Below, piece after piece: positions 1-53,868 of a stretch of 64,000 nucleotides of DNA. The notes beneath the pieces are model-generated. The model did no database searches and had not been told where the DNA came from. It worked only from the letters and a program-made list of their open reading frames with translations. How positions within the stretch are numbered: position 1 is the stretch's first letter; every line of letters starts with the position of its first letter. A program made the translations under genes and the position numbers. Source of the stretch: Afifellaceae bacterium (GTDB lineage: Bacteria > Pseudomonadota > Alphaproteobacteria > Rhizobiales > Afifellaceae); contig OZ244173.1 of assembly GCA_965216515.1 (NCBI GenBank), positions 2,547,588 to 2,611,587 of the forward strand, given 5' to 3'.

Positions 1-1643
1 ACCGGCAGGCCGAGCCGCCTGGCCTCGTCGGGGGTCAGGTGCCGGGACTCAAGCAAGGCCCGCGCCGCGGCCAGATCCGCCTCGCGCCGCCCATGGGCCG
101 CCGCCCGCTCTGCGCCGACACAACCGGCCGCGATACCGGCCGGCGTCAGCCGCTGGTCGGCATTGTCGGCGCGCAACGACAGCCGGTATTCCGCCCGCGA
201 TGTAAACATCCGGTAGGGTTCGCTGACGCCCCGCGTTACCAGATCGTCGATCATGACGCCGAGATAGGCGTCAGTGCGGGCAAACACGACCCCGTCGGCA
301 CCGCCGGCGCGCCGCGCCGCATTGAGGCCGGCGACCAGCCCCTGGGCCGCCGCCTCCTCATAGCCGGTCGTGCCGTTGATCTGGCCGGCGAGATACAGTC
401 CCGGCAGCCTCTTGCATGCCAGCGTCGCGTCGAGTTCGCGCGGATCCACATGGTCGTATTCGATGGCATAGCCCGGCCGCAGGATTCGCGCCTGCTCAAG
501 GCCAGGAATGGTCCGCACCATTGCCTCCTGCACCGTTTCCGGCAGCGACGTGGAAATGCCGTTGGGATATACGGTCGGATCGTCCAGCCCCTCCGGTTCC
601 AGAAAAATCTGGTGGCTCGTGCGGTCGGCAAATCGCACGACCTTGTCTTCAATCGACGGGCAGTAGCGCGGGCCGGTGCTTTCGATCCGGCCGGAATAGA
701 TCGCCGACTTATCGAGATTGCGGGAAATCAGGTCGTGGGTGTGTCCCGTCGTCCGGGTGATATGGCAATCGATCTGTGGCGTTGTGATGGTGTCGGTCCG
801 CGTCGAAAACGGTTCCGGCGGATTGTCTCCCGGTTGCCGGTCAAGTCCCTCTCTGTCGATGGTTCGCCCGTCAAGCCGCGGCGGCGTGCCGGTCTTGAGC
901 CGCGACAGCCGAAATCCGAAGCGCGCCAGCGTCTTCGACAGGCCCAATGCCGGCGCTTCGCCGGCGCGCCCGGCCGGGATCTGCTTTTCCCCGATATGGA
1001 TCAGGCCACGCAGGAACGTGCCGGTCGTCAGCACGACCGCGCTGGCGCGAATTGTCCGCCCGTCGCCAAGCCGCACCCCGCTCACCCGCGCCTTCCGCCC
1101 CTCATCTTCCTGTTGTCCATCCGCACCCGATTCGCGGCCCGATTCCGTTTTCGCCGGCGCACCGTCAACGACCAGATCCTCAACCGCCGCTTCCACGACC
1201 GACAAATTCGGTACCGAATCGATTTCCGCCTGCATTGCCCGTCGGTAGAGCGCCCGGTCTGCCTGAGCGCGCGGGCCGCGGACCGCTGGCCCCTTGCGGC
1301 GATTGAGCACCCGGAATTGAATACCCGCCCGATCGATCGCCCGGCCCATCAATCCGTCAAGCGCATCCACTTCGCGGACAAGATGCCCCTTGCCCAGCCC
1401 GCCGATCGCCGGATTGCATGACATTTCACCGATTGTCGCCCGCTTGTGAGTCACCAGAATCGTATCGGCCCCGAATCGAGCCGCGGCCGCCGCAGCCTCA
1501 ACGCCTGCATGGCCGCCCCCGACGACGACAATGTCCGCCCGATCGGGGATCGCTGCAAGGGGGCGCACGCCGCTGTCGCCACCGGCTATTGCTGTACTGG
1601 TCGGGGCAGCGGTCGATGGGTTGGTGGTTCTGACAGTGGTCAT
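1..1643 (-). CDS. mnmG: tRNA uridine 5-carboxymethylaminomethyl modification enzyme MnmG (GidA), N-terminal ~547 aa; C-terminus runs off the window start
   Basis: Minus-strand translation from ATG at 1643..1641 gives MTTVRTTNP...[17 protein letters not shown] (FAD dinucleotide-binding motif) with no in-window stop. It is not in the ORF track because it is truncated at the edge. The plus-strand ORF 39..1421 is its antisense shadow. Confidence 0.9.
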
Positions 1644-1682
1644 GGCTGCGCTTTAACGGAATTTCCCGGCTTTGAGAACCGA

Positions 1683-1698
1683 TGTTTCACGTGAAACA
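1683..1698. repeat. Perfect 16-bp palindrome TGTTTCACGTGAAACA (copy 1), about 40 bp upstream of the mnmG start
   Basis: Read directly in the sequence. An identical copy lies at 1890..1905. Confidence 0.9.
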
Positions 1699-1889
1699 CG
1701 GTGGCAGGCCAATTCGAGATCTGGGGCTTGGGCGTCGCACTCTGCCGCCCCGCCTTTCCGGATCCGGCACCCGTGCCGGCAAATAGCCCGGACCCGACAT
1801 CGTGCAATGTGCCGCGATTGCGCGATTCCCCGGCGACTTCAAATAGCGTTGATCGCGGCGCTGATGTAAGGCGTCGCCGGCAGGTTCCC

Positions 1890-1905
1890 TGTTTCACGTG
1901 AAACA
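1890..1905. repeat. Perfect 16-bp palindrome TGTTTCACGTGAAACA (copy 2), 6 bp before the mnmE stop codon
   Basis: Read directly in the sequence. Centres of the two copies are 207 bp apart. The flanks extend the inverted symmetry (GATGTTTCACGTGAAACA in copy 1 and in the reverse complement of copy 2). Confidence 0.9.
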
Positions 1906-1911
1906 TCCGCC

Positions 1912-3252
1912 TCACTTGCCGATGCAGAACTCGCCGAACAATCGGTCAAGCACGCGCTCGACATCGACCCTGCCGGTGATCACCCCCACTTCATGAAGCG
2001 CAGCGCGTATGTGCTCCGCCGTTATCTCGAGCGGCTGCTCTGGCACCTTCGCCTTCGCCACCGCATCCCGGCATCGATCCAGCGCGTCCCGTTGCCGTTG
2101 CCGCGCGATTACGCCGCTGTCGCCCGTTGCCATTCTGGACCGCGCGAATGCTCCAAGTCGCGTGCGCAAGGCCGCCAGGCCCTCTCCGGACTGCGCCGAG
2201 ATATACACGTCATAGGCCGTACCGATCCGGTTCCTGTTATGATCGTCAACCAGGTCGGTTTTGGTTCGCACCCGCCACGTACATACGCCGCACAATTCCT
2301 CCCCATCGACCACCCATTCATCGTCTTCCAAACTGCCTGAACCATCATCCAGCACCAGCACCAGGTCGCTGGCTCCAGCGGCCCGCCGGGCACGCCGCAT
2401 CCCTTCCTGCTCCACCGCGCCGCCACCGGCCCGCATCCCCGCCGTGTCGAAAACATGCACCGGGTATCCGAAGATATCCAGGCGCGCCTCAAGCACGTCC
2501 CGCGTCGTTCCCGGCGTGTCATGCACAATCGCCACATCCCGCGCTGCCAATGTGTTGACCAGCGTCGACTTCCCGACGTTCGGCGGCCCGATCAGCGCTA
2601 CGCGCAGGCCGCTGCGCACCCGCTCCGCCGCTTCCGCCGACCCCAGCAGCTCCCGGACCTGTCCGTCGATTTCCCTCAGCGCCGCGTCAAGGCTAAAAGT
2701 ACCCTCATCCACATCATCTTCATCGGAAAAATCAATCCGCGCTTCAACCTGCGCCAACACGCCAATCAGCCTGTCGCGCAGGCCCGCTATCTCTCGCGCC
2801 ACCGAGCCTTCTGCAATGGCCAGCGCCTGCCGCCGCTGCGCTTCAGTTTCGGCACCGATTAGATCCGCGAGACCCTCCACTTGCGTCAGATCCAGCCGAC
2901 CATTGTCAAATGCCCGACGCGTGAATTCGCCCGCATCCGCCATTCTCAGTGCACGCTGTTTCGCTAACGAATCAATGACCGCCTGCACAGTCGCAACGCC
3001 CCCGTGACAGTGAAACTCCGCGCAATCATCTCCCGTGAAGCTCGCCGGTTTTGCCATCCAGTAGACCAGCGCCCGATCAAGAAACAATCCCGTACCCGGA
3101 TCACGCAGCGCCCGCAAAACCATCCGACGCTCCGGGGGTATCGCAGTCCCGGTCATTTCGGCGAGCACACCTCGCACATCCGGACCCGACAACCGGATCA
3201 CCGCGACCCCGGCCGGCAACCCGCCGCTCGAAAGCGCAAATATGGTGTCCAT
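1912..3252 (-). CDS. mnmE: tRNA modification GTPase MnmE (TrmE)
   Basis: 446-aa ORF with G-domain GPPNVGKSTLVNTLA and a C-terminal CIGK tetrapeptide. It lies immediately upstream of mnmG, the classic mnmE-mnmG arrangement. Confidence 0.9.
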   Translation of the reverse strand: MDTIFALSSGGLPAGVAVIRLSGPDVRGVLAEMTGTAIPPERRMVLRALRDPGTGLFLDRALVYWMAKPASFTGDDCAEFHCHGGVATVQAVIDSLAKQRALRMADAGEFTRRAFDNGRLDLTQVEGLADLIGAETEAQRRQALAIAEGSVAREIAGLRDRLIGVLAQVEARIDFSDEDDVDEGTFSLDAALREIDGQVRELLGSAEAAERVRSGLRVALIGPPNVGKSTLVNTLAARDVAIVHDTPGTTRDVLEARLDIFGYPVHVFDTAGMRAGGGAVEQEGMRRARRAAGASDLVLVLDDGSGSLEDDEWVVDGEELCGVCTWRVRTKTDLVDDHNRNRIGTAYDVYISAQSGEGLAALRTRLGAFARSRMATGDSGVIARQRQRDALDRCRDAVAKAKVPEQPLEITAEHIRAALHEVGVITGRVDVERVLDRLFGEFCIGK

Positions 3253-3363
3253 ACCACCTCCCTGGACACTGTCGCTCCGCCGTCAACATTACAGCCGAAC
3301 CTTAACCGAACCCGTTCCGCCAAGGCGACATTCCTCAATCGGATATCTGCATGTTTAATTTCG

Positions 3364-3378
3364 TTAACGAATCGTTAA
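3364..3378. promoter_or_regulatory. CtrA-box-like motif TTAA-N7-TTAA with an embedded GANTC (GAATC) in an AT-rich patch about 110 bp upstream of mnmE
   Basis: The sequence is gTTAAcgaatcgTTAAaa. A third TTAA sits 5 bp upstream (3355..3358). Local AT-richness (3330-3385) contrasts with ~65% GC elsewhere. Confidence 0.35.
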
Positions 3379-3704
3379 AACACTACGGAAGCGAATCGAT
3401 ACCCGGTCATCAGCCCACCTGAGCCGATCAGATCCTTCCTGGATCAAACGCCGCCGTCCCCAACGGTTTCGCTACCGACTCAATCCGCTTCCGGGTCGCG
3501 CGGCGCAGGCCCTGTCAAACCAATTCGATCGCCGGTTTCGGTATAACCTCCGGCGCCGGTTTCTCAGAATCCTCAAAATGCCGGACGCAGGTTCCGGGCA
3601 CACCGCTATTCGGCTCATCCCGTTCCGTTGGGCGATTCCAAATATCATATCGCCGATGATCGGGGCGGACTGCTCCGTTGATCCGGCCCGCCGAACCGCG
3701 CCGA

Positions 3705-4970
3705 TCAGGTATTCATCGAATCGAAAAATTCACTGTTCGATTTGGTCTGCTTCAGCTTGTCGAGCAGGAACTCGATCGCATCGACCACGCCCATCGACGA
3801 CAGGATTCTGCGCAGCACAAACACCTTCTGCAAATCGCCTTTCGGCACCAGAAGCTCTTCCTTCCGTGTCCCGGACTTCAGGATATCCATGGATGGGAAC
3901 ACCCGTTTGTCGGCGACCTTGCGATCCAGCACGATCTCCGAATTGCCCGTCCCCTTGAACTCCTCGAAAATCACCTCGTCCATCCGGCTCCCGGTATCGA
4001 TCAGCGCTGTCGCGATGATCGTCATCGACCCGCCTTCCTCGATATTCCGCGCCGCGCCGAAAAACCGTTTTGGCCGCTGCAGGGCGTTGGCATCCACACC
4101 GCCCGTCAGCACCTTGCCCGAGGACGGCACCACCGTGTTGTAGGCCCGGCCCAGCCTGGTTATGGAGTCCAGCAGGATCACCACGTCGCGCCCGTGCTCC
4201 ACCAGCCGCTTGGCTTTCTCGATCACCATTTCCGCGACCTGCACATGCCGCGCCGCCGGCTCGTCGAACGTCGAAGATATTACTTCGCCGCGCACCGTCC
4301 TTTGCATGTCCGTCACCTCTTCGGGACGTTCATCGATCAACAGCACGATCAGGTAGGCCTCCGGATGATTGCTGGTTATCGACTTGGCAATATTCTGCAA
4401 CAGCACCGTCTTGCCGGTCCTTGGCGGTGCGACGATCAATCCCCGCTGGCCCTTCCCCAGCGGTGCGACCAGATCGATCACCCGCGCCGACATATCCTTC
4501 ACGGTCGGATCGTCGGTCTCCATATTGAACCGCTCATCGGGGTAGAGCGGCGTCAGATTGTCAAAGTGGACCTTGTGCCTTGCTTTTTCCGGGTCCTCGA
4601 AATTGATACTGTTGACCTTCAGCAACGCAAAATACCGCTCGCCCTCCTTGGGGCTGCGGATCTGCCCTTCGACCGTATCGCCGGTCCGCAGCGAAAACCG
4701 GCGGATTTGCGAAGGTGATACATAGATATCATCCGGTCCCGGCAGATAGTTGGCGTCGGGAGATCGCAGAAAACCGAATCCGTCCTGCAACACCTCCACC
4801 ACGCCTTCGCCGATGATGTCGATATCCTGTTCCGCCAGGTTCTTGAGTATGGCAAACATCAATTCCTGTTTGCGCAAAGTGCTGGCGTTTTCCACCTCGT
4901 GTTCCTCGGCAAAGGCGAGCAACTCCGTCGGCGACTTCGCTTTCAATTCCTGTAATTTCATTTCAGACAT
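3705..4970 (-). CDS. rho: Transcription termination factor Rho
   Basis: The ORF 3705..5132 contains the full Rho (RNA-binding domain, Walker [10 protein letters not shown]-terminal ...FFDSMNT). The start is placed at the internal Met [10 protein letters not shown] (ATG 4970..4968), giving ~421 aa, typical of Rho. The 54-aa track extension upstream is Ser/Gly/Arg-rich and unlikely to be coding. Confidence 0.9.
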
Positions 4971-5210
4971 GGTCTCAATTCCGGAAGGACGGCAAAATGC
5001 GGGTATTGGGTGCAGCGGCGCTGTGCGATCGTCGCGAGGCTCGATGGTTCGTCGTATTTCGGAAAACCGGAGGAAAAGCCGCTCGGATCCTGAAGACCCA
5101 TTCGCAGACCCCGCCCCGGAAAAGGGCTTCACACAGCGTCGGAAACGCTAGGATTGCCTTTAAGATAATCCCACATCGCCGATTCGACAAGTGGCAATTC
5201 CGGCACCCCG

Positions 5211-5633
5211 TTAAAACGGTTTCACCACCACCATCACGACGATCCCGATCATCAGCACCGTCGGCACCTCATTGACGATCCTGTAGTACCGCGCCGGCCG
5301 CGTATTGCCATCCCGGGCAAACGTCTTCACCCAGCCCGCCAGCATCCCATGAAATGCGCTCAGGCCCACCACCAGCACCGCCTTGACGTGAAACCAGCCT
5401 TCCGTCCAGCCGCCCGATTCCACCGCCAGCCATACCCCAAACACCCAACTGCCGATCATCGCCGGCGTCGCGATCCCCTTCAGCAGCCGACGCTCCATGA
5501 TCTTGAACGTTTCCGACTGGACCGATCCCGCATCCGCATCCGCGTGATACACCATCAGCCGCGGCAGATAGAGCAGGGCGGCCATCCAGGAGATTACCGC
5601 CAAAATATGCGCTGCTTTCACCCACACCATCAC
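5211..5633 (-). CDS. hemJ: Protoporphyrinogen IX oxidase HemJ family (UPF0093/TIGR00701-like membrane protein)
   Basis: 140-aa polytopic membrane protein ([31 protein letters not shown]...). Its start overlaps the hemE stop by 4 nt. The hemE-hemJ pairing is common in alpha-proteobacteria. Confidence 0.75.
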
Positions 5634-6679
5634 AATCCGCGCACCCGGCGAACCAGTGCCCCGACGTGCTCAGGCGGCGTATCCGGCTGTATTCCGTGAC
5701 CAAGGTTGAAGATATGCGGATGCCCGTCCATCGCGCCCAGTATGCGTTCGACGCCGTCCTCCATTGACCGCCCGCCCGTCATCAGCCGCAACGGATCGAG
5801 ATTTCCCTGCAATGCCTTGTCCGTCGCTTGTCGGGCCGCCGCCAGCGGCATTGTCCAGTCGATACCATACCCGTCCCCCCCGGTTGCCGCCGCATAGGCC
5901 GCCAGCCTTTGCCCGCATCCCTTGGCAAACAATATGATCCGCGCATCCGGCCGCCGGCTCCGGACACCGGCCACGATCGCCGCCACCGGCGCAACCGCCC
6001 ACCGCTCAAACAAATCATCATCCAGTACCCCGGCCCAGCTGTCGAATATCTGCACCGCATCCACCCCGGCATCGATCTGCCCCACCAGATAATCGATCGA
6101 AGCTCCCACGAGTATCTCGATCAGCGTCCCGAACCCTTCCGGATCCGCAAGTGCCAACAACCGCGCCGGCCTCTGGTCCGGCGTCCCCCGACCCGCAACC
6201 ATATAGGTCGCCACCGTCCAGGGCGCCCCGCAAAACCCGATCAGCGCCTTTTCGCCATCCAGATTTTCGCGCACCCGCGACACGGTTTCCAGCACCGGCG
6301 CCAGATGCCTCATCACCCGCGCCGGCTTCAGCCCCGATACCGCACCCGGCGACAACATCATCCCATTCCCCTGCGAAACGGCGAGCGCATCCAGGACCGG
6401 GCCTTCACCGGCTTCAAACCGCACCTTCTGTCCCAGACCGTCCGGGATCACCAGAATGTCGGAAAACAAAATCGCGCAATCGACATCGAACCGATGCACC
6501 GGTTGCAACGTCACCTCTGCTGCCAGCTTTGGCGAATAGCAAAGATCAAGAAACGATCCCGCCGCCGCGCGGACCTTTCGGTATTCGGGTAGATACCGTC
6601 CCGCCTGACGCATGAGCCAGACCGGTGGCGGCGTAACGGCTTCGCCCGCCAGCACACGCGCAAGACTGGTTTTCCTCAT
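5630..6679 (-). CDS. hemE: Uroporphyrinogen decarboxylase
   Basis: 349 aa with the N-terminal signature [16 protein letters not shown] and full-length similarity to HemE. Confidence 0.9.
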
Positions 6680-7077
6680 ATCGACTTCAACCCTTCTTTT
6701 TCAAAACCGTCTAGATTCTTTATGTTGATTCTTTTGGGCCGGGGATAAGAAGGATTATGCCTTGCCCACATTTTGCGCCTGCCGCCGCCCTGGCATTGCG
6801 GCGCACCCCACGCCCCGGCATTATGTGGACGAATTTCGGGATAAATCGGAATTTCCATTTATTTTCAAGGTATTAATGATTTCTGGAAATCACGATATCC
6901 ACGCAATTGAGCCAGCTTCTTTTGTACAATCCGGTTGTCACCAGCCTTCCGATCACCATCTGCATCTTGTCCCCGTTGCATTCAACTGTTGATCTGGATT
7001 GAAAAGCGGGCGACATCAACCGCCATGACGCCTCACCGGCGCGATTTGTCCGACCAACACACACAGTCTTCGACAGC
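6680..7077. other. Putative chromosomal replication origin (oriC / Cori-like) in the hemE <-> DUF299 divergent spacer
   Basis: The flanks follow the conserved alpha-proteobacterial origin gene order (hemE | ori | DUF299-maf-aroE-coaE-dnaQ). An AT-rich ~60-bp stretch lies at 6841-6900 (about 35% GC). Three 7/9 DnaA-box-like 9-mers: cGGGGATAA at 6740-6748, TGTGGAcgA at 6824-6832, aTATCCACg at 6895-6903. Two GANTC sites sit in a GATTCTTT direct repeat (6714-6721, 6727-6734). An inverted repeat GATTTC-tg-GAAATC lies at 6878-6891. Confidence 0.5.
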
Positions 7078-7908
7078 TTGTCCAAACGCCGCTTCTTCCA
7101 TCTTCACCTTGTCTCCGACGCCACCGGCGAGACCCTCGTCAGCGTGGCCCGGGCCGCGGCGGCGCAGTATGCCGCCATCAACGCCATCGAACATATTCAT
7201 TCCCTGGTCCGCACCCGCGCCCAGGCCGAGGCCGTTGCCCGCAAGATCGAGGATGCGCCGGGGATCGTTCTTTATACCCTTGTCGACGAGGAGACGGCGG
7301 CGGCGCTGGAGACGGAGTGTACGAAACTTGGCGTCCCCACCGTTTCGGTGCTGGCGCCGGTGCTGAATGCCTTCCAGTCCTATCTCGGTGCACCGTCAAC
7401 CGGCCGCGTCGGCGCCCAGCATGCGCTCGATGCCGACTATTTCCGCCGCATCGATGCGCTCAATTTCACGCTGGCCCACGACGATGGCGCTTTGCCGGAA
7501 AACATGGACGACGCCGATGTCGTCATCGTTGGCGTCAGCCGGACATCCAAGACGCCGACATCGATCTATCTTGCCAACCGTGGTGTGCGGACCACCAACA
7601 TGCCGCTTGTTCCGGGTGTCGAACTGCCTGAAAAGATTGTCAGCGCCCGCAAGCCGCTGGTCATCGGTTTGGTCGCCAGCCCCGACCGGATTGTTCAGAT
7701 TCGCGAACATCGCGTCCTCGCCATGAATGCCGACGAGCGCGTCGATTCCTACACCGACCGCACCGCCGTCGCCGAAGAGGTTGCCGCCAGCCGCAAACTG
7801 TGCGCACGCAACGGCTGGCCGGTGATTGATGTCACACGCCGCTCCATCGAGGAGATTGCCGCCGCGATCCTCGGCCTTCTTGCCCAACGCCGGGCGGCCG
7901 GCCCATGA
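7078..7908 (+). CDS. DUF299 family protein (putative pyruvate,phosphate dikinase / PEP synthetase regulatory kinase-phosphorylase; homolog of the first ORF after Caulobacter Cori)
   Basis: 276 aa beginning MSKRRFFHLHLVSDATGETL with P-loop-like GVSRTSKTPTS. It has a TTG start at 7078. An in-frame stop lies just upstream, so no ATG alternative exists. Confidence 0.8.
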   Translation: MSKRRFFHLHLVSDATGETLVSVARAAAAQYAAINAIEHIHSLVRTRAQAEAVARKIEDAPGIVLYTLVDEETAAALETECTKLGVPTVSVLAPVLNAFQSYLGAPSTGRVGAQHALDADYFRRIDALNFTLAHDDGALPENMDDADVVIVGVSRTSKTPTSIYLANRGVRTTNMPLVPGVELPEKIVSARKPLVIGLVASPDRIVQIREHRVLAMNADERVDSYTDRTAVAEEVAASRKLCARNGWPVIDVTRRSIEEIAAAILGLLAQRRAAGP

Positions 7909-8495
7909 ACCTCGTTCTGGCATCGGCGAGCCGCACCCGGCAGGCATTGCTGAAGGCCGCCGGGCTCGAATTTGTCAGCGAACCCGCCGGTATCGACGAA
8001 CGCCAGGCCGAAGCGCCGCTGATCGCCGCCGGCGCCAGCGTTGCCGATCTTGCCCAGGCCCTGGCCATGGTCAAGGCGTCGACCGTGTCCGAACGACGGC
8101 CCGGCGATCTCGTCATCGGTGCCGACCAAACCCTGGACCTTGAAGGCGAACGCCTGACCAAGCCCGCCGACATGGAGGCGGCCCGCCGGCAGCTGCGCGC
8201 CCTGTCCGGCCGCACCCACCGGCTTCACTCCGCGCTTGCCTGCGCCCGCGACGGCACTGTCGTGTGGCAGACCGGCGAAACCGCGCACATGACGATGCGC
8301 GATCTCTCGCCGCACCAGATCGGCCGCTATCTGGCCGATGTCGGCGCCCTGGCCCTGCAGAGCGTCGGCGCCTACCAGATCGAGGGGCGGGGTATCCGTT
8401 TGTTCGACCGCATCGAAGGCAGTCACTTCGCCATTCTCGGCCTGCCGATGCTGCCGCTGCTGGCTTTCCTGCGCGGACAAGGGGCGATCGGGTGA
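7905..8495 (+). CDS. maf: Maf-like nucleoside triphosphate pyrophosphatase (septum formation protein Maf)
   Basis: 196 aa beginning MNLVLASASRTRQALLKAAGL. Its ATG overlaps the upstream stop (ATGA). Confidence 0.85.
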   Translation: MNLVLASASRTRQALLKAAGLEFVSEPAGIDERQAEAPLIAAGASVADLAQALAMVKASTVSERRPGDLVIGADQTLDLEGERLTKPADMEAARRQLRALSGRTHRLHSALACARDGTVVWQTGETAHMTMRDLSPHQIGRYLADVGALALQSVGAYQIEGRGIRLFDRIEGSHFAILGLPMLPLLAFLRGQGAIG

Positions 8496-9334
8496 TCGGC
8501 GCGCAACCGCGCGCCTGCGTCGTCGGCTGGCCGATCGCCCATTCACGCTCGCCGCTGATCCATGGCCACTGGCTGGAACGGTACGGGCTGTCCGGTTCCT
8601 ATGGCCGCCATGCCCTGGCACCCGATGACGCAGAGCGGTTTTTTGCCGACCTCGGCGGTCATGGCTATGTTGGCTGCAATGTCACCCTGCCGCACAAGGA
8701 GACCGCCTGGCGGGCGCTGGATCGGGCGACGCCGATCGCCGATCGGCTGCGCGCCGCCAACACCTTGTGGCTGGAAGACGGGATCCTGTGTGGCGACAAC
8801 ACCGATGTTTACGGTTTTCTTGCCAATCTCGACGACCGGGCAGGCGGCTGGGACAGCGGCGGCCCGGCGCTGGTGATCGGTGCCGGCGGTTCCGCCCGCG
8901 CGGTTGTCCATGCCCTGGTCGATCGCGGCCTTGGTCCCATCCATGTCTTGAACCGCACGCGCGATCGCGCTGTCGCGCTGGCCGCCGACATCGACGGGCC
9001 GATCTCGCCGGCCGGCCTCGATACGGTCAATGACGCGATCGCGCATGCGACCCTTGTCGTCAACACGACATCGGCGGCCCTGAAGGGTGAAGGCGATCCG
9101 CTGGCCATCGACTGGCGGCGGGCAAGTTCCGCGGCCCTTGCCGCCGACATCACCTATGTGCCCCTGATGACCCCGTTCCTGGCGGCTGCCGCCCAGGCCG
9201 GACTGCCCGTGTGCGACGGCCTCGGCATGCTGCTGCACCAGGCGGTGCCGGGATTTGAGCGCTGGTTCGGGCGCCGGCCGGAGGTCGACAACGCCCTGCG
9301 TGAACGGGTGATCGCCGACCTGGAGGCCGGCTGA
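8492..9334 (+). CDS. aroE: Shikimate dehydrogenase
   Basis: The ORF 8264..9334 contains AroE (GWPIAHSRSPLIHGHWL..., NVTLPHK, GAGGSARAV). The start is placed at GTG 8492 (VIGAQPRACVVGW), overlapping the maf stop (GTGA). The upstream track extension is Arg/Pro-rich. Confidence 0.85.
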   Translation: MIGAQPRACVVGWPIAHSRSPLIHGHWLERYGLSGSYGRHALAPDDAERFFADLGGHGYVGCNVTLPHKETAWRALDRATPIADRLRAANTLWLEDGILCGDNTDVYGFLANLDDRAGGWDSGGPALVIGAGGSARAVVHALVDRGLGPIHVLNRTRDRAVALAADIDGPISPAGLDTVNDAIAHATLVVNTTSAALKGEGDPLAIDWRRASSAALAADITYVPLMTPFLAAAAQAGLPVCDGLGMLLHQAVPGFERWFGRRPEVDNALRERVIADLEAG

Positions 9335-9921
9335 TGCGGATCATCGGCCTCACCGGCGTCATCGGCGCCGGCAAGACCACCACCGCCGGGTTGTTCGCGC
9401 AACGCGGTATCCCGGCTCACGACGCCGATCGCAGCGTCCACACCCTTTACCGGGGCGCCGCCGCGCCGGCGATCGAGGCCGCCTTTCCCGGCACGACATC
9501 CGATGGTGTCGTCGATCGCGACCGGTTGGCAGCGGCGGTCCTCGATGACCGCGCGGCGCTCCGGCGGCTCGAATCGATCGTTCATCCGCTCGTGATCGAT
9601 GATCGAAATCAATTCATTGCGAAAGCGAAACAAAACCTGTGTCGCGCGGTTGTGCTGGATATTCCGTTGCTGTTTGAGATCAATGCCGATCGTTTCGTCG
9701 ACGTTATAATTACCGCGACGGCCGCCCCCGAGATCCTGCGGGACCGGGTCATGAAGCGGCCGCGGATGACGGACCGGAAATACCGGGCGCTCCTTGACCG
9801 TCAGATGTCCGACTCCGAAAAGCGCCGGCGTGCCCATTTCACGGTCGATACGGGGCAGGGGTTGGCGGCCGCCGGGCGGCGGGTTCACGGGCTGGTGCGG
9901 GCGCTCGCTTTCACCGTTTAG
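9334..9921 (+). CDS. coaE: Dephospho-CoA kinase
   Basis: 195 aa beginning MRIIGLTGVIGAGKTT (P-loop). Its ATG overlaps the aroE stop (TGATG). Confidence 0.85.
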   Translation: MRIIGLTGVIGAGKTTTAGLFAQRGIPAHDADRSVHTLYRGAAAPAIEAAFPGTTSDGVVDRDRLAAAVLDDRAALRRLESIVHPLVIDDRNQFIAKAKQNLCRAVVLDIPLLFEINADRFVDVIITATAAPEILRDRVMKRPRMTDRKYRALLDRQMSDSEKRRRAHFTVDTGQGLAAAGRRVHGLVRALAFTV

Positions 9922-10065
9922 GTCGCCGGTCTCTTCCCGGGCTTGTGCGCATGCCGGTTTCGCGCATGTTCCGGGGCCGGACAATGCACGCGGCCGCCCG
10001 CAGGATTCCGGGGATGGCCACATCACGCACTTGCGCCGATCCGGCCGAATGCCGAAAGTGCCGCC

Positions 10066-10752
10066 ATGCGGGAGATCGTCTTCGACACCGAATCGACAGG
10101 GCTGAATCCGGCCGGCGGCGACCGGCTGGTGGAAATCGGTTGTGTGGAATTGCTGAACCACATCCCCACCGGCCGCACGTTTCATCAGTATATCAATCCC
10201 GAACGCGCCATGTCCGCCGATGCCGAAGCCGTGCACGGTCTCGGTGATGCGTTCCTGCGTGACAAGCCGCTCTTCGCCGCCGTCGCCGGACCGTTTCTGG
10301 CCTTTGTCGCCGACAGCAAGCTGGTTGCCCACAATGCGTCCTTCGATCGCGGCTTCATCAACATGGAGCTTGAGCGGGCCGGCCATGCGGGCCTTCCCCC
10401 GATGCGCTTCACCGATACGCTGGCGCTTGCCCGCCGCCGCCACCCCGGCGGTTCCAACAGCCTCGACGCCCTGTGCGCCCGCTACGGCATCGACAACTCC
10501 GCCCGCACCAAGCACGGCGCCCTTCTTGATGCGGAAATTCTCGCCGAGGTCTATATCGAGCTCCTCGGCGGCCGTCAGGCGTCGCTTTCGCTGCGGACCG
10601 TCACGGGCGGTGATGCGGCGGCCGGCGGATCGGCCGCCCTGCCGCCACGGCCGGAGCCGCTCGCCCCGCGGCTGACCGGCGATATGCGTGCCCGCCATGC
10701 CGCCTTTGTCGGAACCTTCCCCGTTCCGGCGCTGTGGAACGCCGGCGACTGA
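10066..10752 (+). CDS. dnaQ: DNA polymerase III epsilon subunit (3'-5' proofreading exonuclease)
   Basis: Start at the internal ATG 10066 (MREIVFDTESTGL, Exo I motif), with HNASFDRGF (Exo II) and GALLDAEILAEVY (Exo III). The 41-aa track extension upstream is Cys/Arg-rich. Confidence 0.85.
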   Translation: MREIVFDTESTGLNPAGGDRLVEIGCVELLNHIPTGRTFHQYINPERAMSADAEAVHGLGDAFLRDKPLFAAVAGPFLAFVADSKLVAHNASFDRGFINMELERAGHAGLPPMRFTDTLALARRRHPGGSNSLDALCARYGIDNSARTKHGALLDAEILAEVYIELLGGRQASLSLRTVTGGDAAAGGSAALPPRPEPLAPRLTGDMRARHAAFVGTFPVPALWNAGD

Positions 10753-10791
10753 TCGGCGTCCCGCAACCGCAAGGGCCCGCCGGCCGCCCGT

Positions 10792-11409
10792 TCAGGCGCT
10801 CGGTGCCGCGTCGGCGGGATTGGTTTGCTGCGCGGCCATCTGCGCGGCCCGCTGACGGTAAAGGGCCACGAAGTCGACCGGATCGACCATTAGCGGCGGG
10901 AACCCGCCCTGCCGGGTCGCGTCAGCCAGTATCTGCCGGGCAAACGGAAACAGCAGCCGGGGACACTCGATCAGCAAGATCGGATGCAGGTGTTCCTGGG
11001 GCGTGTTCTGGATTTGAAACACCCCGGCATAGGTGACCTCGGCGAGGAACATCTGCTGTTCGCCCCTTTTGGCATCGGCCTCCAGCTTCAGTTCGACCTC
11101 ATAGTCATTGCCGGAAAGCGGGTGGACGTTGACGTTGACATTGACGCTGAGGTTCGGTGTCGTCTCGCTCGGAGCCAGCGATTGCGGCGCCGCCGGATTT
11201 TCAAACGAAAGATCCTTGATATATTGGCCAAGCACGCGGATACCGGCCTGGGCCGGTGTGGCCTGCCCGGGCTCCGCCCCGCCAGCCGCCTGTTCCGGCG
11301 CGGCCGCGCCGGAGGCCTGGCCGTTGCCGCCGCCGTTGCCGGAGTCATTGCCGGCGCCGCCGGAACCGTCGCTCGCTTTGTTGTCGGGAGTGTCGTTGGA
11401 TTGGGTCAT
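10792..11409 (-). CDS. secB: Protein-export chaperone SecB with a ~55-aa low-complexity N-terminal extension
   Basis: The core IRVLGQYIKDLSFENPAAPQ...FLAEVTYAGVF...PLMVDPVDFVALY matches SecB. The start is placed at ATG 11409 (MTQSNDTPDNK...), preceded by a Gly/Ser/Asn/Ala-rich segment. Confidence 0.85.
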   Translation of the reverse strand: MTQSNDTPDNKASDGSGGAGNDSGNGGGNGQASGAAAPEQAAGGAEPGQATPAQAGIRVLGQYIKDLSFENPAAPQSLAPSETTPNLSVNVNVNVHPLSGNDYEVELKLEADAKRGEQQMFLAEVTYAGVFQIQNTPQEHLHPILLIECPRLLFPFARQILADATRQGGFPPLMVDPVDFVALYRQRAAQMAAQQTNPADAAPSA

Positions 11410-11536
11410 GTCGGGTCCGTCCGTTCGCTGTGGGGTGCCGCCTACCATGCCCGTCCCTGCGTCACAATCCCGGCAATCGTTCCAGCGGTTGCATCTGGCC
11501 GCATTTCATCGTCGCCAGGGGCGGGCCACCGCCGGC

Positions 11537-12052
11537 CTATCGATCCTCCGGTTCCCGCCACGGGCTGTCGGGATCGGGCCGCGCGGTGTAGTCGTCGGTG
11601 TCGAGATCGATCACCTCCGGTCTTTTTGCCCTGCCGGTCGCCGGACCCTGTCCGCCTCGATGCGGCGCGCCGCGGATGTCGCCATCGGCATGTCCGGCCG
11701 CCCGCACATCCAGATGCCGGCCGATCAGGCGCCACAGGAACGTCCGCACCGGCGGCGCAAACAGCGCAAAGCCGATCGTGTCGGTGATGAAGCCGGGCGT
11801 CAGGAGCAAAAGACCGGCGGCGGCGATCATCGCGCCTTCCACCAGCGGCTTTGCCGGCATGCGCCGGGCGTCAAGGTCGGCGCGGATGCGGCCGAGCACC
11901 GCCAGCCCCTGATGGCGCAGCAGGAACGTGCCGGCGAATGCGGTTAACACTATCAGCGCCATGGTCGCGCCAATCCCGATTTCGCCGCCTATAAGGATAA
12001 AGGCGGCGATTTCCAGGAGCGGGATTGCGAGAAACAGGAGAAAAAGCGGCAT
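11537..12052 (-). CDS. fxsA: FxsA family cytoplasmic membrane protein
   Basis: Start at the internal ATG 12052 (MPLFLLFLAIPLLEIAAFILIGGEIG), followed by a long basic/acidic C-terminal tail. Confidence 0.7.
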   Translation of the reverse strand: MPLFLLFLAIPLLEIAAFILIGGEIGIGATMALIVLTAFAGTFLLRHQGLAVLGRIRADLDARRMPAKPLVEGAMIAAAGLLLLTPGFITDTIGFALFAPPVRTFLWRLIGRHLDVRAAGHADGDIRGAPHRGGQGPATGRAKRPEVIDLDTDDYTARPDPDSPWREPEDR

Positions 12053-12205
12053 GAACAACTCCGGATGCCTCCAATATGGGTTTCCGGCCTCCGGCCGCAA
12101 CACAATTCCGGCCTTTTGCTGGACAATGCCGCATTCCTGCTTACATTGGACTCAAGATACCGCACGGTGGTATTCCCTCCCGATCCCCAAGGGCCGAGAC
12201 GGCGT

Positions 12206-12910
12206 ATGAGTGGTTTGTTCGACATATATTCGATCATCTTTCTGGTGATCGCGGTTGTAATTTTCATGCGCCTGGGAAACGTTCTCGGCCGTCGCACCGG
12301 CAACGAGCCGACTCCGTTTGAGCGGCGAATCGAAAAATCGCCCGCCGGTGCCGGGAACGACAACGTTGTCTCCCTGCCCAAGCGCGAAGCCGGGTCGGCG
12401 GCTGGCACCGGCCCGTCCGTCACGCCGGAGATCCTTGCCAAATATGCCGAGCAGGGCAGCCCGGCCCATGACGGTCTCCTCGCCATCGCCGGTGCCTCGT
12501 CCGATTTCGATCCGGAGCATTTCCTGACCGGCGCCAGGATGGCCTATGAAATGATCGTCACAGCCTTTGCCGATGGCGACCGCGACACGTTGAAGAACCT
12601 TCTCGATCCCGATGTCTTCGACGGCTTCGTCTCCGCCATCGCCGATCGCGAATCCCGCGGCGAGCATGTGGAATCGACCTTTGTCGGCATTGAAAGCGCG
12701 AATATTACGGGCGCCGGGCTGGAAGGCCGTGTCGCCCGCGTCTCGGTGCGCTTTGTCAGCGAACTGATCTCCGCCACCAAAAACACCGACGGCGCCGTCA
12801 TCGATGGCGATCCCACCGCGGTGCAGACCGTGCGCGACGTTTGGACCTTTGCTCGCGACCTGAAGGCGCGCGATCCGAACTGGAAACTGGTGGCGACCGA
12901 ATCGGTCTAG
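12206..12910 (+). CDS. Tim44-like domain protein (alpha-proteobacterial homolog of mitochondrial Tim44)
   Basis: Start at ATG 12206 (MSGLFDIYSIIFLVIAVVIF, N-terminal TM helix), with a Tim44-like C-terminal domain. It sits in the conserved secB/fxsA-Tim44-mltA-smr neighbourhood. Confidence 0.75.
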   Translation: MSGLFDIYSIIFLVIAVVIFMRLGNVLGRRTGNEPTPFERRIEKSPAGAGNDNVVSLPKREAGSAAGTGPSVTPEILAKYAEQGSPAHDGLLAIAGASSDFDPEHFLTGARMAYEMIVTAFADGDRDTLKNLLDPDVFDGFVSAIADRESRGEHVESTFVGIESANITGAGLEGRVARVSVRFVSELISATKNTDGAVIDGDPTAVQTVRDVWTFARDLKARDPNWKLVATESV

Positions 12911-12954
12911 GCCGGCCCCGCCGGTCATTGCTTTCAAGCTAGGCGGGCAAGCCC

Positions 12955-14214
12955 ATGGCCCCCGATGATCGCCGCAACACGACGGCCAGTTCCGATCCAG
13001 GTCCGGCTTCTCCCGCCTCCCGAGGAACAGACACCTTGCGTGCCGTGTCATTTTCGGCCCTCCGCGGCTGGGCGCAAGATGATCATTGTGCCGCTTTTGC
13101 CGCCTTTCTGAAGAGCGCGGAACATATTGGCGCCGCGCCCCGAAATGCCGCCGGTGCCGGCCAGCCCGGCAATGCGCCGAAAACCCGCGCCCACGGGATC
13201 AGCGGTTCCGGCCTTTGTGCCGTCGCCCGCAGCGCCCTGGCCGCGAAAGGCCAGGGGCTTGCGTCCGATCCCGGCCGGGCGCGCGCGTTTTTTGAGCGCT
13301 GGTTCCGTCCCATGCGTATCGTCGCTGACGGATTTTTCACCGCCTATTTCGAGCCGGAGGCACCGGCCAGCCGGACGCCGACCTCGGCGTTTCCCGTTCC
13401 CCTTTACCGCCGGCCCGCCGATCTGGTCGACGTCGGTGACCACAACCGCCCCGCCGGCTGGGATCCGGACATCCGGTTCGCTGCAAAGTCGGCCAACGGC
13501 CTTGAACCCTACGCCGACCGCGCCGCGATCGAAGGCGGCGCGCTTGAAGGTCGCGGGCTGGAACTCGCCTATGTCGCCGATCCGGTGACCGCCTTTTTTA
13601 TCCACGTTCAGGGGTCGGCCCGCCTGCGCTTCTCCGACGGCACCACCCTGCGGATCGCCTATGCGGGCAAATCCGGGCATCCCTACACCTCGATCGGCAA
13701 GCGGGCGGTCGCCTGCGGCTATCTCCATCCCGACCGATGCGGCAAGACGGAGCTGCAGGCCTGGCTTGCCGCCAATCCCGGACCCGGCCGCGACCTGATG
13801 CACGAAAACCGGTCGTTCATCTTTTTTCGCCCGGTCAACGGGCTTTCGGAATCCGACGGTCCCGTGGGCGCCGGCGCCGTCAGCCTCACACCCGGCCGCA
13901 GCCTGGCGGTCGACCGGCGGTGGACGACGTTTCACACCCCCGTCTGGATCGATGCGGCCGGAGTTCCGGATCCCGATGACCGGCCGCGTGAGACCCGCAA
14001 CGATGCGCCGGTCGGTGTGCCCGACGACATTCAAGGCGCTTCGCGCGGCGGCCGCTTCGCCCGGCTGATGGTCGCCCAGGACACCGGCTCGGCCATCGTC
14101 GGCCCGGCCCGCGGCGATCTTTTCTTCGGCGCCGGCGAGCGGGCAGGTGATCTTGCCGGTACGGTCCGCGCCCCCGGCGAAATGACGTTGCTCGTCCCGG
14201 TTCCGGAAGGATGA
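12955..14214 (+). CDS. mltA: Membrane-bound lytic murein transglycosylase A
   Basis: 419 aa with the MltA-type core (...AYFEPEA..., ...GKSGHPYTSIGKRAV...) and a 3D-domain-like C-terminus. It follows the Tim44-like gene, as in other alpha-proteobacteria. Confidence 0.75.
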   Translation: MAPDDRRNTTASSDPGPASPASRGTDTLRAVSFSALRGWAQDDHCAAFAAFLKSAEHIGAAPRNAAGAGQPGNAPKTRAHGISGSGLCAVARSALAAKGQGLASDPGRARAFFERWFRPMRIVADGFFTAYFEPEAPASRTPTSAFPVPLYRRPADLVDVGDHNRPAGWDPDIRFAAKSANGLEPYADRAAIEGGALEGRGLELAYVADPVTAFFIHVQGSARLRFSDGTTLRIAYAGKSGHPYTSIGKRAVACGYLHPDRCGKTELQAWLAANPGPGRDLMHENRSFIFFRPVNGLSESDGPVGAGAVSLTPGRSLAVDRRWTTFHTPVWIDAAGVPDPDDRPRETRNDAPVGVPDDIQGASRGGRFARLMVAQDTGSAIVGPARGDLFFGAGERAGDLAGTVRAPGEMTLLVPVPEG

Positions 14215-39039: not shown

Positions 39040-40568
39040 TTAGACGAGGCCGTTCAGATGATCGGCCAGCCGCAGCGTCAGCTGGGTCAGCGGCAGCGTC
39101 GGATTGACCTGCCCGTAGGTCGGGAAAATGCTGGATCCGGCTATATAAAGATTTGAAATACCATGCACTTTTGCGTTTCTGTCGACAACGCCCTGCTTGG
39201 CATCGTCGGCCATGCGGGTGGTTCCCATATGGTGGTTCCCGGCCACCTCATCCTCACCTGGACCCGGGAACGGGCGTTCGGATGAATAGACCCAGCGGGC
39301 GATCTTCATGCGCCCCAGATCCTGGCGGGCGAAGCGCGCCGCGATATGCGTCGCCGCCGCCGCGATCGTCCGCCGGTCAAGCGCTGACATCCGCCAGTCG
39401 AGTGCAATCCGCTGCCAGCCGAAAATGTCGGTTTGATCGGTGAGCCGGACCCGGCTGTCCGGGTTGGGTGCCTGGTCCGTTGTGACGTGAAGATGACCTT
39501 CGGCGCAGTAGGGATATTGCCGAAACCGAACCAGATCGATGCCCTTGCTCAGCCAGTCGGGGCTGCAAACGGCCTGCCGCAACCGGCCCGAAAAATCACG
39601 CGCCGCCGGCTTGATGTCCGGCAGGACACGCAATCCGAAATTCAGGACTTTGTGTTCCTCGACAAAATTCTCGCGCGCCCCGTAAAACAGATAATAATGC
39701 GGTTTCTCCGTCATTTCCTTGTAGGACAGCGCCTGTGTGATCCGGTCCCGGATCTTGTCCTCAAACACAATCTGACCGACAAAATGATGGGGATGTTCGG
39801 CGAAAAACCGGCCGACAAGGTCGTTTTGATTGCCGATACCCGCCGCCATCTGCGAATTGCAATTCAACAATATCCGCGGATTCTCCAGCCCGCCGGCTGC
39901 CAGAACAATGCGATCCGCCTGGAATTCCCGCCGTTCACCCGCAAAGCCGCGCACGACCAGCGTCCGCACGGCGTTGCGATCGTCGTCAAGCCGCAAGTCC
40001 GTCAAATTGGCATTCGTCAGGCAGGTGATGTTTCCGCGCGCGCAATCGCATCATGATATTTCTCCCCCAGCCGCGTCGGCTGGCTCCACAAAAACCGGTG
40101 CGGCTTCAGGCCAGCAGGCGAGACCAGCGCATCATCGAAGTCGCTCCGGTAGGGCGCTTCGATCCGCGCCTCCAGGTCGATATCGAGTATCTCCGCGGCA
40201 CGTTCCAGATAGGCGGACAGATCGCTGTGGCCGATCGGCCAGCCGCTAAACGGCACATGATCCCGTTTGACGAAATCCATCGGTTCAAGCGCCTGGCACC
40301 AGCCGGACCAGACGTTGGACGTTCCGCCAAAGAACCGCATCCGGCATTCGTCGAGCGGGAAATAGGCCCGCCCGGTGATCTCGCCGGAATACAGATCCTG
40401 CGATTCACCGGTGAAGTCGGTGTCGCCACCCTCCAGAAGCAGGACCTGCACGGTCCTGGATAGCGCCAGCGCCAGGGTGATTCCGGCAATCCCGGCGCCG
40501 ACGATGGCAACGTCGAATGTCCGGCCATCAAAGGCGCCGGTCTCCAGATCATGGAGATTGGCCAGCAT
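39040..40568 (-). pseudogene. GMC-family FAD-dependent oxidoreductase (choline dehydrogenase-like), split by a frameshift near 40020-40050
   Basis: The N-terminal fragment 40017..40568 (FDVAIVGAGIAGITLALA, FAD-binding) stops at ...ETSPA*. The C-terminal fragment 39040..40005 begins only with a TTG. Its frame read upstream gives ...GNITCLTNANLTDLRL, the expected GMC continuation (NLTVLT-like motif). It ends with HHMGTTRM...NLYIAGSSIFPT (GMC C-terminal motif). Confidence 0.6.
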
Positions 40569-40830: not shown

Positions 40831-41463
40831 CTAGTCGCTGCCGAATGCCGACACCCGCCGGAGCGTCAGATTGATGCGGCCGGCTGTTCCCAACAGGGTC
40901 GATGTGCCCGGATAAATCCGGTCGATCCCGTGAAAGGCCAGTCGCGATCGGCCGCCCATCACCACGACATCCCCGGACGACAGCCGGAACGACCGGGTCG
41001 GACCCTTGCGTGTCGACCCGCCAATTCGGAAGCGGGCCTGATCGCCGAGCGAAACCGAAACGATCGGCGCCTCAAACGTTTCTTCGTCGCGATCCTGGTG
41101 CAGCCCCATTTTCGCCTCCGGGCCATACCAATTGACAAGACTGACTTCCGGTTCCACGGGACAGCGCGACACATCGGCCCAAAGCGAAAGCAGCATTGGT
41201 GGAATCGCCGGCCAGGCACGGCCCGTTTCCGGGTGCACGGGCTGGTAGCGGTAGCCGGCCCGGTCGGACACCCAGCCAAGTGTGCCGCAATTGGTCATGC
41301 GGACGGAAAACGGACGGCCGGTTCCGGGCATTGTCGGCCGATAAAACGGGGCCTTGCAACCGACCGATCGAATATCCGCAATCAGCCGTTCTTGTGCGGC
41401 GGGACCGAAATATCCCGCCAGAACCCGAAGTCCTTCAGACACAGGCACTCCATTTCGACCCAT
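40831..41463 (-). CDS. alkB: Alpha-ketoglutarate-dependent dioxygenase AlkB (DNA/RNA alkylation repair)
   Basis: 210 aa (...RMTNCGTLGWVSDRAGYRY..., NWYGPEAKMGLHQDRDEETFEAPIVSVSLG). It is collinear with E. coli AlkB. Confidence 0.8.
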   Translation of the reverse strand: MGRNGVPVSEGLRVLAGYFGPAAQERLIADIRSVGCKAPFYRPTMPGTGRPFSVRMTNCGTLGWVSDRAGYRYQPVHPETGRAWPAIPPMLLSLWADVSRCPVEPEVSLVNWYGPEAKMGLHQDRDEETFEAPIVSVSLGDQARFRIGGSTRKGPTRSFRLSSGDVVVMGGRSRLAFHGIDRIYPGTSTLLGTAGRINLTLRRVSAFGSD

Positions 41464-41509
41464 TGCCCATTAGCCCAGCTTTAACGCTGTTGTGCCAAAG
41501 GATCGAGCC

Positions 41510-48528: not shown

Positions 48529-49059
48529 ATTCCGGCATACGGAATCATTCCCGGCGCTCCCGAGGAATCCGGCCGCCTGCGTCGCCGTTTCCACGTCCGC
48601 TCGCGCCTGCGACGATTGCGCGGGCGGCTTGCCGCTTTTCCCGATTCGGTGAAACCGGTATTGTCCAATTGATTCGGGCCGGCGGCGGTGAGGGCCGGTC
48701 AGGGCAGGGGCAATCGCAAGGACGCCATGGACGTCCCGCGGAGATTGCGATCGGTCGGCGCTGTATCGAAGATTCGGCGACAGCGACAGCCTGATCGCAG
48801 CGGATCGGGAATTGGCGAGGCGGTTTGGCTTTGGGATATCCGAACTGACCAGGCGGCGGAGACAGGATTGAAATTGGAGGCCGGCCGGAAACCGCGGAAT
48901 TTGCGTCGGCGGCTCACCGTCCGGACAGGGCGTTGCGGTGTCCGGGTTTTCCGGATTTTGGCAATTTCTGGACGGGTTGCCGTGCCGGTTGTTTGCGCGG
49001 CTCCGGCATTTGCCCTTGATCTGCCGCTACCCGATATCAATTCGCTGAAAGTGGGCGCC

Positions 49060-53157: not shown

Positions 53158-53868
53158 ATGGTGCTTGCCGCCGGGCTCGGCAGGCGCATGCGCCCGTTGT
53201 CAACCACGGTCCCCAAGCCGCTGGTCACGGTCGCCGGCAAGGCATTGCTCGATCATTGTCTTGACGATCTGGTATCTGTCGGCATCGACCGTATCGTCGT
53301 CAATGTCCATTATCTCGCCGACAGCATCGAGTCCCATGTGGCCGATTGGGCCGCCGGCGGCCGGAGCCGGCCGGCGGTCATCATCTCCGATGAACGCGAG
53401 CAACTTCTCGATACCGGCGGCGGTATAGCCGCTGCCTTGCCGCATCTGGGTGAACGCCCGTTTTTTCTGCGAAACTCCGATTCCTTCTGGTTGAACGGGG
53501 TCCGATCGAATCTCGACTGGTTGTGCCGCATGTGGGATCCGGCGAAGATGGATGCACTCCTGCTGCTTGCGCCGTCGGTTCGTTCGATCGGTTATCGGGG
53601 CCGAGGGGACTTCATGCTGTCGAAAGCCGGATGCCTTTCCCGGCGCCCGGAACGTGTCGTTGCGCCCTTTGTCTATGCCGGCGCGGCAATTCTCGACCCG
53701 GTATTGTTCGCCGATTGCCCCGACGGCCCGTTCTCGCTCAATATGCTCTTTGACCGGGCGATCGGCGCCGGGCGGCTCTACGGCGTGCCCATGGAGGGTC
53801 TGTGGATAAATGTGGAAAACCCGGATGCGGTGAGGCAGGCCGAATCGTTGCTGGCTGGTTTGATTTGA
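53158..53868 (+). CDS. murU: Nucleotidyltransferase family protein (MurU-like N-acetylmuramate-1-phosphate uridylyltransferase)
   Basis: Start at the internal ATG 53158 (MVLAAGLGRRMRPLSTTVPKPLV, nucleotidyltransferase G-rich loop). It follows the kinase gene as in amgK-murU pairs. Confidence 0.7.
   Translation: MVLAAGLGRRMRPLSTTVPKPLVTVAGKALLDHCLDDLVSVGIDRIVVNVHYLADSIESHVADWAAGGRSRPAVIISDEREQLLDTGGGIAAALPHLGERPFFLRNSDSFWLNGVRSNLDWLCRMWDPAKMDALLLLAPSVRSIGYRGRGDFMLSKAGCLSRRPERVVAPFVYAGAAILDPVLFADCPDGPFSLNMLFDRAIGAGRLYGVPMEGLWINVENPDAVRQAESLLAGLI

Follow-up and report, generated by a model that had tools for sequence, protein, structure and literature searches.

Sequence analysis of a hemE-linked spacer that probably contains the chromosomal replication origin of an Afifellaceae bacterium

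We analysed a 64-kb stretch of DNA (64,000 nucleotides; hereafter the window, numbered from its first letter) from an Afifellaceae bacterium, and found that the spacer between hemE and a DUF299 gene, at positions 6680-7077, is probably the chromosomal oriC and an orthologue of the origins linked to hemE in Caulobacter, Rickettsia and Sinorhizobium; we give this reading a probability of roughly 0.8. An initial annotation of the window had already called the spacer a probable chromosomal origin, and this proposal gains support from the conservation of the arrangement at 144 related loci, from an enrichment of DnaA-box-like motifs, from orthology, from conserved islands inside the spacer, and from the literature. 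The locus has the location, the box cluster, the AT-richness and the orthology that characterize the hemE-linked oriC family. The CtrA sites that mark the Caulobacter subtype of the family are absent from the spacer.

Genes were called with a dynamic-programming gene finder, and the calls were checked against Pfam. As can be seen from the list below (all gene names as assigned by Pfam), the order is mnmG-mnmE-rho-hemJ-hemE, then the spacer, then DUF299-maf-aroE-coaE-dnaQ, in agreement with the order that had been read from the sequence initially.

3-1643, minus strand: mnmG
1912-3252, minus strand: mnmE
3705-5132, minus strand: rho
5211-5633, minus strand: hemJ/UPF0093
5630..6679, minus strand: hemE (uroporphyrinogen decarboxylase), the left boundary gene (Pfam URO-D, E=1e-110)
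6680..7077, no strand: candidate oriC, the divergent hemE-DUF299 spacer (398 bp; GC 0.49, against 0.65 for the window)
7078..7908, plus strand: DUF299 / PpsR-type kinase-pyrophosphorylase (Kinase-PPPase), the right boundary gene (Pfam PF03618, E=2.5e-90)
7905-8495, plus strand: maf
to 9334, plus strand: aroE
9334-9921, plus strand: coaE
to 10752, plus strand: dnaQ

Rightward of dnaQ, Pfam identified secB, fxsA, a Tim44-like gene, mltA and smr. The housekeeping genes in the remainder of the window are gshB, yraN, rsmI, hemW, rdgB, rph, hrcA, grpE, dnaK, dnaJ, ahcY, a PAS histidine kinase gene, tsaE, murU, addB, addA, trx, folC and accD; we take this set, from gshB to accD, to be the one typically found near the origin in Rhizobiales. 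No dnaA was found within the 64-kb window in the Pfam survey of its genes, and no Rfam family, tRNAs and riboswitches included, reached its gathering score anywhere in the 64 kb. A protein search returned an identical 276-aa DUF299 protein (P0001) on a contig of 3,889,465 bp. We also noted that a GMC-type oxidoreductase gene appears to be split at 39040-40568 (minus strand) into two adjacent ORFs, one of 183 aa with a DAO/FAD N-terminal part and one of 321 aa with a GMC_oxred_C part; a frameshift or a pseudogene is probable here.

The spacer has the lowest GC content (0.49) among the intergenic regions of the window, and its composition is uneven. Its main compositional and repeat features are as follows.

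6714-6721 and 6727-6734, plus strand: direct repeat GATTCTTT, which carries two GANTC sites and overlaps TGTTGAT at 6723-6729
6773..6822, no strand: GC-rich segment (GC about 0.75) with the direct repeat CGCCC(T/C)GGCATT, poorly conserved
6832..6898, no strand: AT-rich block, a candidate DNA-unwinding element, with the lowest GC and the least stable duplex in the window
6877-6883 and 6886-6892: inverted repeat TGATTTC/GAAATCA

A 60-bp AT-rich block, a direct repeat with two GANTC sites and a GATTTC inverted repeat had all been described in the initial annotation, and all three were recovered here. The GC content of 6832-6891 is 0.28, and the least stable 60-bp duplex of the 64 kb lies at 6839-6898, with a dG of -70.1 (mean -96.1, sd 5.4); the second least stable one (6675-6734, dG -73.0) is in the spacer too. 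The block at 6832-6898 contains GAATTTC twice. Its AT-richness, rather than its exact sequence, is kept in the related loci L161-L163 and in L082 and L083, and conservation in the closest relatives does not extend to the GATTTC palindrome. The direct repeat at 6714-6734 is probably in the promoter region of hemE; within it, TGATTCTT (6726-6733) is invariant in the four members of the clade formed by the window and L161-L163, and is part of a conserved island at 6720-6757. A scan for consensus sigma-70 promoters found none in the spacer.

We scored DnaA-box-like motifs by the number of mismatches to the consensus TTATCCACA, so that a 7/9 motif has two mismatches. Five 7/9 motifs are present in the 398 bp of the spacer, against 1.22±1.03 expected from 2000 dinucleotide-preserving shuffles (P=0.005), and no motif within the spacer comes closer to the consensus than 7/9. 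In sliding 398-bp windows the spacer is the densest DnaA-box cluster of the 64 kb, and every other intergenic region in the window has at most one motif. The three 7/9 boxes listed initially (6740-6748, 6824-6832 and 6895-6903) are where they had been placed, and the motif scan added two which had been missed (6762-6770 and 6836-6844). The sites, together with weaker ones at positions that are conserved among relatives, are listed below.

6740-6748, minus strand: site A, TTATCCCCG, 7/9
6762-6770, plus strand: site B, TTGCCCACA, 7/9, inverted partner of site A
6824-6832, minus strand: site C, TCGTCCACA, 7/9, with an intact TCCACA core
6836-6844, minus strand: site C', TTATCCCGA, 7/9, within the conserved motif GAATTTCGGGA (6830-6842)
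6895-6903, plus strand: site D, ATATCCACG, 7/9
6967-6975, plus strand: site E, TTGTCCCCG, 6/9, weak DnaA-box/W-box-like site with invariant CC.C columns
6987-6995, minus strand: site F, AGATCAACA (plus strand CTGTTGATC), a DnaA-box variant in a positionally conserved slot
7013-7021, plus strand: ACATCAACC, inverted partner of site F (ATCAAC/GTTGAT), conserved in the clade
7045-7053, plus strand: degenerate site G, TTTGTCCGA, aligned with TTTTCCCG of relatives
7057-7065, plus strand: degenerate site H, ACACACACA, aligned with xxxTCCACAG of relatives, with an invariant ACA
7078-7086: a sixth 7/9 box, TTGTCCAAA, covering the DUF299 start codon

The DUF299 start codon is a TTG that lies inside this last box, and it is kept throughout the clade alignment (the window and L161-L163). 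We noted that TTGTC(C/T) occurs at 6967, 7046, 7078 and 7106, always on the plus strand. We also noted a 20-nt direct repeat of 85% identity (CCATCTGCATCTTGTCCCCG at 6956-6975 and CCATCTTCACCTTGTCTCCG at 7098-7117), which may be due to chance, and which puts a second site E context into the DUF299 coding sequence, inside its first 40 nt.

We compared the spacer with those of relatives. Genome and metagenome collections were scanned with the DUF299 protein, which gave 160 loci, of up to 71% identity, and in nearly all of them rho-hemJ-hemE is divergent from DUF299-maf. The hemE-DUF299 spacer could be delimited at 144 related alphaproteobacterial loci (median length 439 bp). The most widespread and over-represented 8- and 9-mers in these 144 spacers are DnaA boxes, TGTGGATAA being present in 34 and TCATCCACA in 33. 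Boxes with at most two mismatches number 719 against 141 expected from shuffles (5-fold), and those with at most one mismatch 237 against 9.3 (25-fold). The five boxes of the window spacer at the two-mismatch threshold equal the median of the relatives, and 26% of the relatives, like the window spacer, have no box at one mismatch or fewer.

Three closer relatives (L161-L163; 76-84% DUF299 identity) were found by protein search, and in the closest of them, L161, parA and rsmG lie further to the left. A profile built from the spacers of these three only had a single nhmmer match in the window, at 6698-7076 (E=7e-45), and the window spacer also matched that of L082 (E=2.8e-5). Neighbouring intergenic regions, for example 3253-3704, showed no similarity to the same relatives that nhmmer could detect. 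Overall identity of the spacer to L161-L163 (0.58, 0.56 and 0.48) equals that of the third codon positions of DUF299 (0.60, 0.56 and 0.48). Four islands of at least 80% conservation, at 6720-6757, 6830-6842, 6980-7017 and 7053-7068, coincide with box positions, which argues for ongoing selection on them.

The invariant columns of the wider alignment are the cores of boxes A, B, E, F and H, and across relatives the box slots hold fixed positions relative to the DUF299 start. Site A aligns with GTGGAT(T/A)A of relatives, with invariant columns G/GAT/A (core GGAT.A), and is the only one of the three initially described boxes that is strongly conserved in the clade. Site B aligns with the invariant CCACA/TCCACAAT of relatives. 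Site C is kept, within the clade, by the window and L161 only, and aligns with TGGACAAG/TGGATAAG in L082 and L083. The clade alignment shows no conservation of site D among the closest relatives. Site E aligns with TGTCCCCAG/AGTCCACAG of relatives, in which TCCCCA and TCCACA accumulate 100-160 bp upstream of DUF299. The GTTGA of site F is invariant in both alignments and falls in the island 6980-7017; since relatives have TGTGGAT or TGTTGAT 80-120 bp upstream of DUF299, CTGTTGATC of the window occupies a DnaA-box slot. Closest to the gene, where TCCACA accumulates in relatives at 0-40 bp upstream of DUF299, the segment of sites G and H (7045-7065) includes ACACACAC, which is invariant in the clade. 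We also refined a DnaA-box weight matrix by EM; it was discarded as too permissive, as it called about 14 sites per spacer.

We analysed the spacer for sites of other regulators of replication. As had been stated initially, it contains no CtrA site (TTAA-N7-TTAA), and none was found even when one mismatch was allowed. The spacers of L161 and L162 also have no CtrA site, and that of L163 has one, where the window reads TCTAGATTCTTTAT, so that presence of the site varies within the clade. Across the spacers of relatives TTAA-N7-TTAA is about 76-fold enriched, yet it is present in only 26% of them and absent from 74%. The initial suggestion that origin control may differ from that in Caulobacter is reasonable but describes something already known, as the origin of S. 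meliloti has no CtrA motifs (PMC4433202). The lack of a CtrA site makes direct occlusion of the spacer by CtrA unlikely, so that any CtrA gating would be indirect, as in S. meliloti. The two GANTC (CcrM-type) sites, at 6714-6718 and 6727-6731, are about what is expected by chance for a spacer of this length; that at 6727-6731 does not vary among the clade members, and GANTC is 2.2-fold enriched across the spacers of relatives. An IHF-like site with one mismatch, TTTCAAGGTATTA, lies in the AT block at 6863-6875; with 9 such sites in the whole window against 12 expected, the match does not exceed chance.

Two other intergenic regions of the window drew attention during these scans. The mnmE-rho intergenic region (3253-3704; 452 bp) contains a perfect CtrA-type box, TTAACGAATCGTTAA, at 3364-3378, a near-palindrome centred on a GANTC; five GANTC sites are present in the region, as is the block that ranks third in AT-richness within the window. 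L161 has the identical 15-mer at the same place and 40 other relatives lack it, while in L002 it lies inside the hemE-DUF299 spacer. The region between ahcY and the gene for a 912-aa multi-PAS histidine kinase (48529-48981; 453 bp) also has five GANTC sites, equalling the mnmE-rho region, and this load hints at regulation of the CcrM/GcrA type.

The initial annotation had predicted that the minimum of the cumulative GC skew over the whole replicon would fall at about 6.7-7.1 kb of the window. Such a minimum was not seen within the window, where the raw curve drops steeply to about 8 kb and then declines slowly to a minimum at about 42-43 kb. We separated the contributions to strand composition, treating the plus-strand GC3 skew of each gene as the sum of an orientation term and a positional term. 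The best single change point of the orientation-corrected skew is at 6.5-8 kb, where it goes from -0.35 to -0.05, the largest step and in the expected direction, but with no reversal of sign; a fit with two change points gave -0.375 (1-6.9 kb), -0.093 (6.9-41 kb) and +0.017 (41-64 kb). The coding GC3 skew of minus-strand genes is between +0.10 and +0.49 on the left and averages -0.03 on the right (n=23; p=2e-5), a step of the kind expected at an origin. Among the genes on the right, those on the plus strand (-0.14) are richer in C3 than those on the minus strand (p=0.001), which is the opposite of what is predicted for a plus-strand leading arm. The polarity of the KOPS-like GGGNAGGG (five on the plus and three on the minus strand to the right, one on the minus strand to the left) was not above chance. 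We noted that the coding GC3 skew of hemE, hemJ, rho and mnmE (+0.2 to +0.49) is more extreme than that in essentially all of more than 100 relatives.

These data bear on the alternative that the spacer is a remnant of an ancestral origin, or a divergent promoter regulated by DnaA, and that replication initiates elsewhere, either at about 41-43 kb or beyond the window, perhaps close to dnaA. We consider this unlikely. The position of the skew minimum, the negative orientation-corrected skew between 7 and 41 kb, and the change at about 41.4 kb, where minus-strand genes give way to a long series on the plus strand, would all agree with an origin further to the right, but the largest skew step is at the spacer, and no other region of the window resembles an origin, 41272-41509 having one weak box and a GC content of 0.58. 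The C3-rich plus-strand genes on the right would also fit initiation elsewhere, as would L161, whose plus strand is likewise C-rich on both sides of the spacer. However, among 41 relatives used for calibration the median of the right-flank term is -0.024, with positive values in only 34%, while the step at the spacer is positive in 93%; relatives from families with accepted hemE-linked origins, among them Neorhizobium, Mesorhizobium, Nitratireductor and Hoeflea, share this near-zero or negative skew on the right flank. Given this weak right-flank signal in relatives, the local skew test has little power. GC skew also failed to place the origin precisely in several alphaproteobacteria (PMC1914354). 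The absence of any spacer box better than 7/9 might likewise speak for an origin elsewhere, but it is matched by the 26% of relatives noted above; the only perfect box of the window (53801) is inside a coding sequence, and the conserved islands on the box positions suggest that selection is continuing.

A related reading, which we also regard as doubtful, is that the spacer is no longer the site, or the sole site, of fork divergence, the active origin having shifted and the cluster of weak boxes having been kept for DnaA-dependent regulation or titration. It is based on the C-rich third codon positions of the plus strand on both sides of the spacer, seen at 1-14000 of the window and at 1-17000 of L161, and on the flattening of polarity about 35 kb to the right. 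The tandem DnaA boxes in murU at 53.8 kb, described below, may have a role similar to that of such a retained cluster.

A further reading, which reduces the spacer to the divergent promoters and 5'-UTRs of hemE and DUF299, with motifs and AT-richness as by-products of promoter composition, is very improbable. In its favour, divergent intergenic regions are generally AT-rich, the GANTC count is that of chance, and the palindrome and box D are not conserved; the empty sigma-70 scan leaves this reading unaffected. Against it, the boxes exceed composition-matched shuffles (P=0.005; 5- to 25-fold in the 144 relatives), none of the seven other divergent intergenic regions called in the window has more than one box, the box slots are positionally conserved across families, and the orthologous site is where Cori has been mapped by experiment (PMC6393856).

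Two places in the window were considered as alternative origins and rejected: the orientation switch at 41.3-41.5 kb, which is not AT-rich and has no intergenic box cluster, and the DnaA boxes at 53.8 kb, which are not in AT-rich DNA and lie within coding sequence. At 53801-53819 (minus strand), the only perfect DnaA box of the window, TTATCCACA, is accompanied by a second box of like orientation, TTTTCCACA, at a distance of 10 bp. Both are inside a murU-like coding sequence (53158-53868, plus strand), about 95 bp upstream of an addB-like gene (53963). WINVE is encoded by the two boxes, with ATA, a rare codon (5.3% of Ile codons here), for Ile. In three relatives with 66-75% protein identity the DNA of the pair is nearly invariant, including the synonymous positions of AAT, GTG and GAA. 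The pair, which lies about 47 kb from the putative origin, may thus form a conserved cluster for DnaA binding.

Returning to the spacer as the chromosomal oriC, we infer DnaA binding, duplex unwinding and origin activity there, and the arrangement of its sites suggests how it might work. DnaA-ATP would cooperatively fill about 8-10 individually weak boxes, none of them closer than 7/9 to TTATCCACA. The array would have three parts: the inverted pair at 6740-6770 beside the hemE promoter, the tandem pair at 6824-6844 abutting the AT block, and the same-orientation series of TTGTCC-type sites at 6967-7086, adjoining and running over the DUF299 start. The DnaA oligomer would then melt the AT-rich block at 6832-6898, where the helicase would be loaded. 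It is possible that divergent transcription from the hemE and DUF299 promoters and CcrM methylation of the invariant GANTC at 6727-6731 modulate firing, as proposed for Cori (PMC6393856). Cell-cycle gating by CtrA, if there is any, would act indirectly, as in S. meliloti.

If this reading is correct, it fixes the origin, and with it the layout of the replichores, in the 3.89-Mb chromosome of an uncultured, Hyphomicrobiales-like alphaproteobacterium without a close sequenced relative, and gives a further example of an origin composed wholly of sub-consensus DnaA boxes and devoid of CtrA sites. It would fit the idea of strategically weak DnaA binding, and of indirect control of replication by CtrA outside Caulobacter. 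The type of locus, the genes that bound it and the absence of CtrA sites from Rhizobiales-type origins are already established, and the finding thus opens no new question. Only two aspects are out of the ordinary: the boxes are sub-consensus throughout, a notion described earlier for Cori, and the strand skew around the spacer is one-sided. Of the two, the skew alone is of wider interest.

The best studied counterpart is Cori of Caulobacter crescentus, which has been mapped experimentally between hemE and DUF299 (PMC1914354, PMC6393856). The window shares with it this location and the order of the flanking genes. Both have weak or moderate DnaA boxes rather than those of the E. coli-type consensus, and TCCCC(A/G) W-box-like cores; an AT-rich region and GANTC sites are present in both, and divergent promoters of hemE and DUF299 lie inside Cori and probably inside the spacer as well (PMC6393856, PMC1914354). 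The differences are that Cori has five CtrA TTAA-N7-TTAA sites and five GANTC sites, against none and two in the window spacer; that the spacer, unlike Cori, contains no G-box (TGATCCACA, at most one mismatch) and, for IHF, only a one-mismatch candidate; and that the main AT-rich block is central in the spacer, whereas in Cori it is next to hemE.

The predicted origins of Rickettsia prowazekii and Rickettsia typhi (hemE-COG1806) have the same boundary genes and a similar length (about 384 bp, against 398 bp), but are about 82% AT with predicted CtrA and IHF sites, in contrast to the spacer of the window, which is 51% AT and has no CtrA site (PMC1914354). The DUF299 protein of the window is about 58-65% identical to those of the Hyphomicrobiales relatives that were retrieved, a set which excludes S. 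meliloti itself (Neorhizobium L016, 58%), and at this distance the spacers are alignable only in short, box-centred blocks. Many relatives commonly have boxes of the TGTGGATAA type, and those of the window spacer are weaker. Sibley et al., in 2006, reportedly placed the chromosomal oriC of S. meliloti next to hemE. The likeness of the window to S. meliloti extends to secB, fxsA, tim44, mltA, rph, hrcA, grpE, dnaK/J, ahcY and addAB, which are gene families that lie close to the origin in Rhizobiales.
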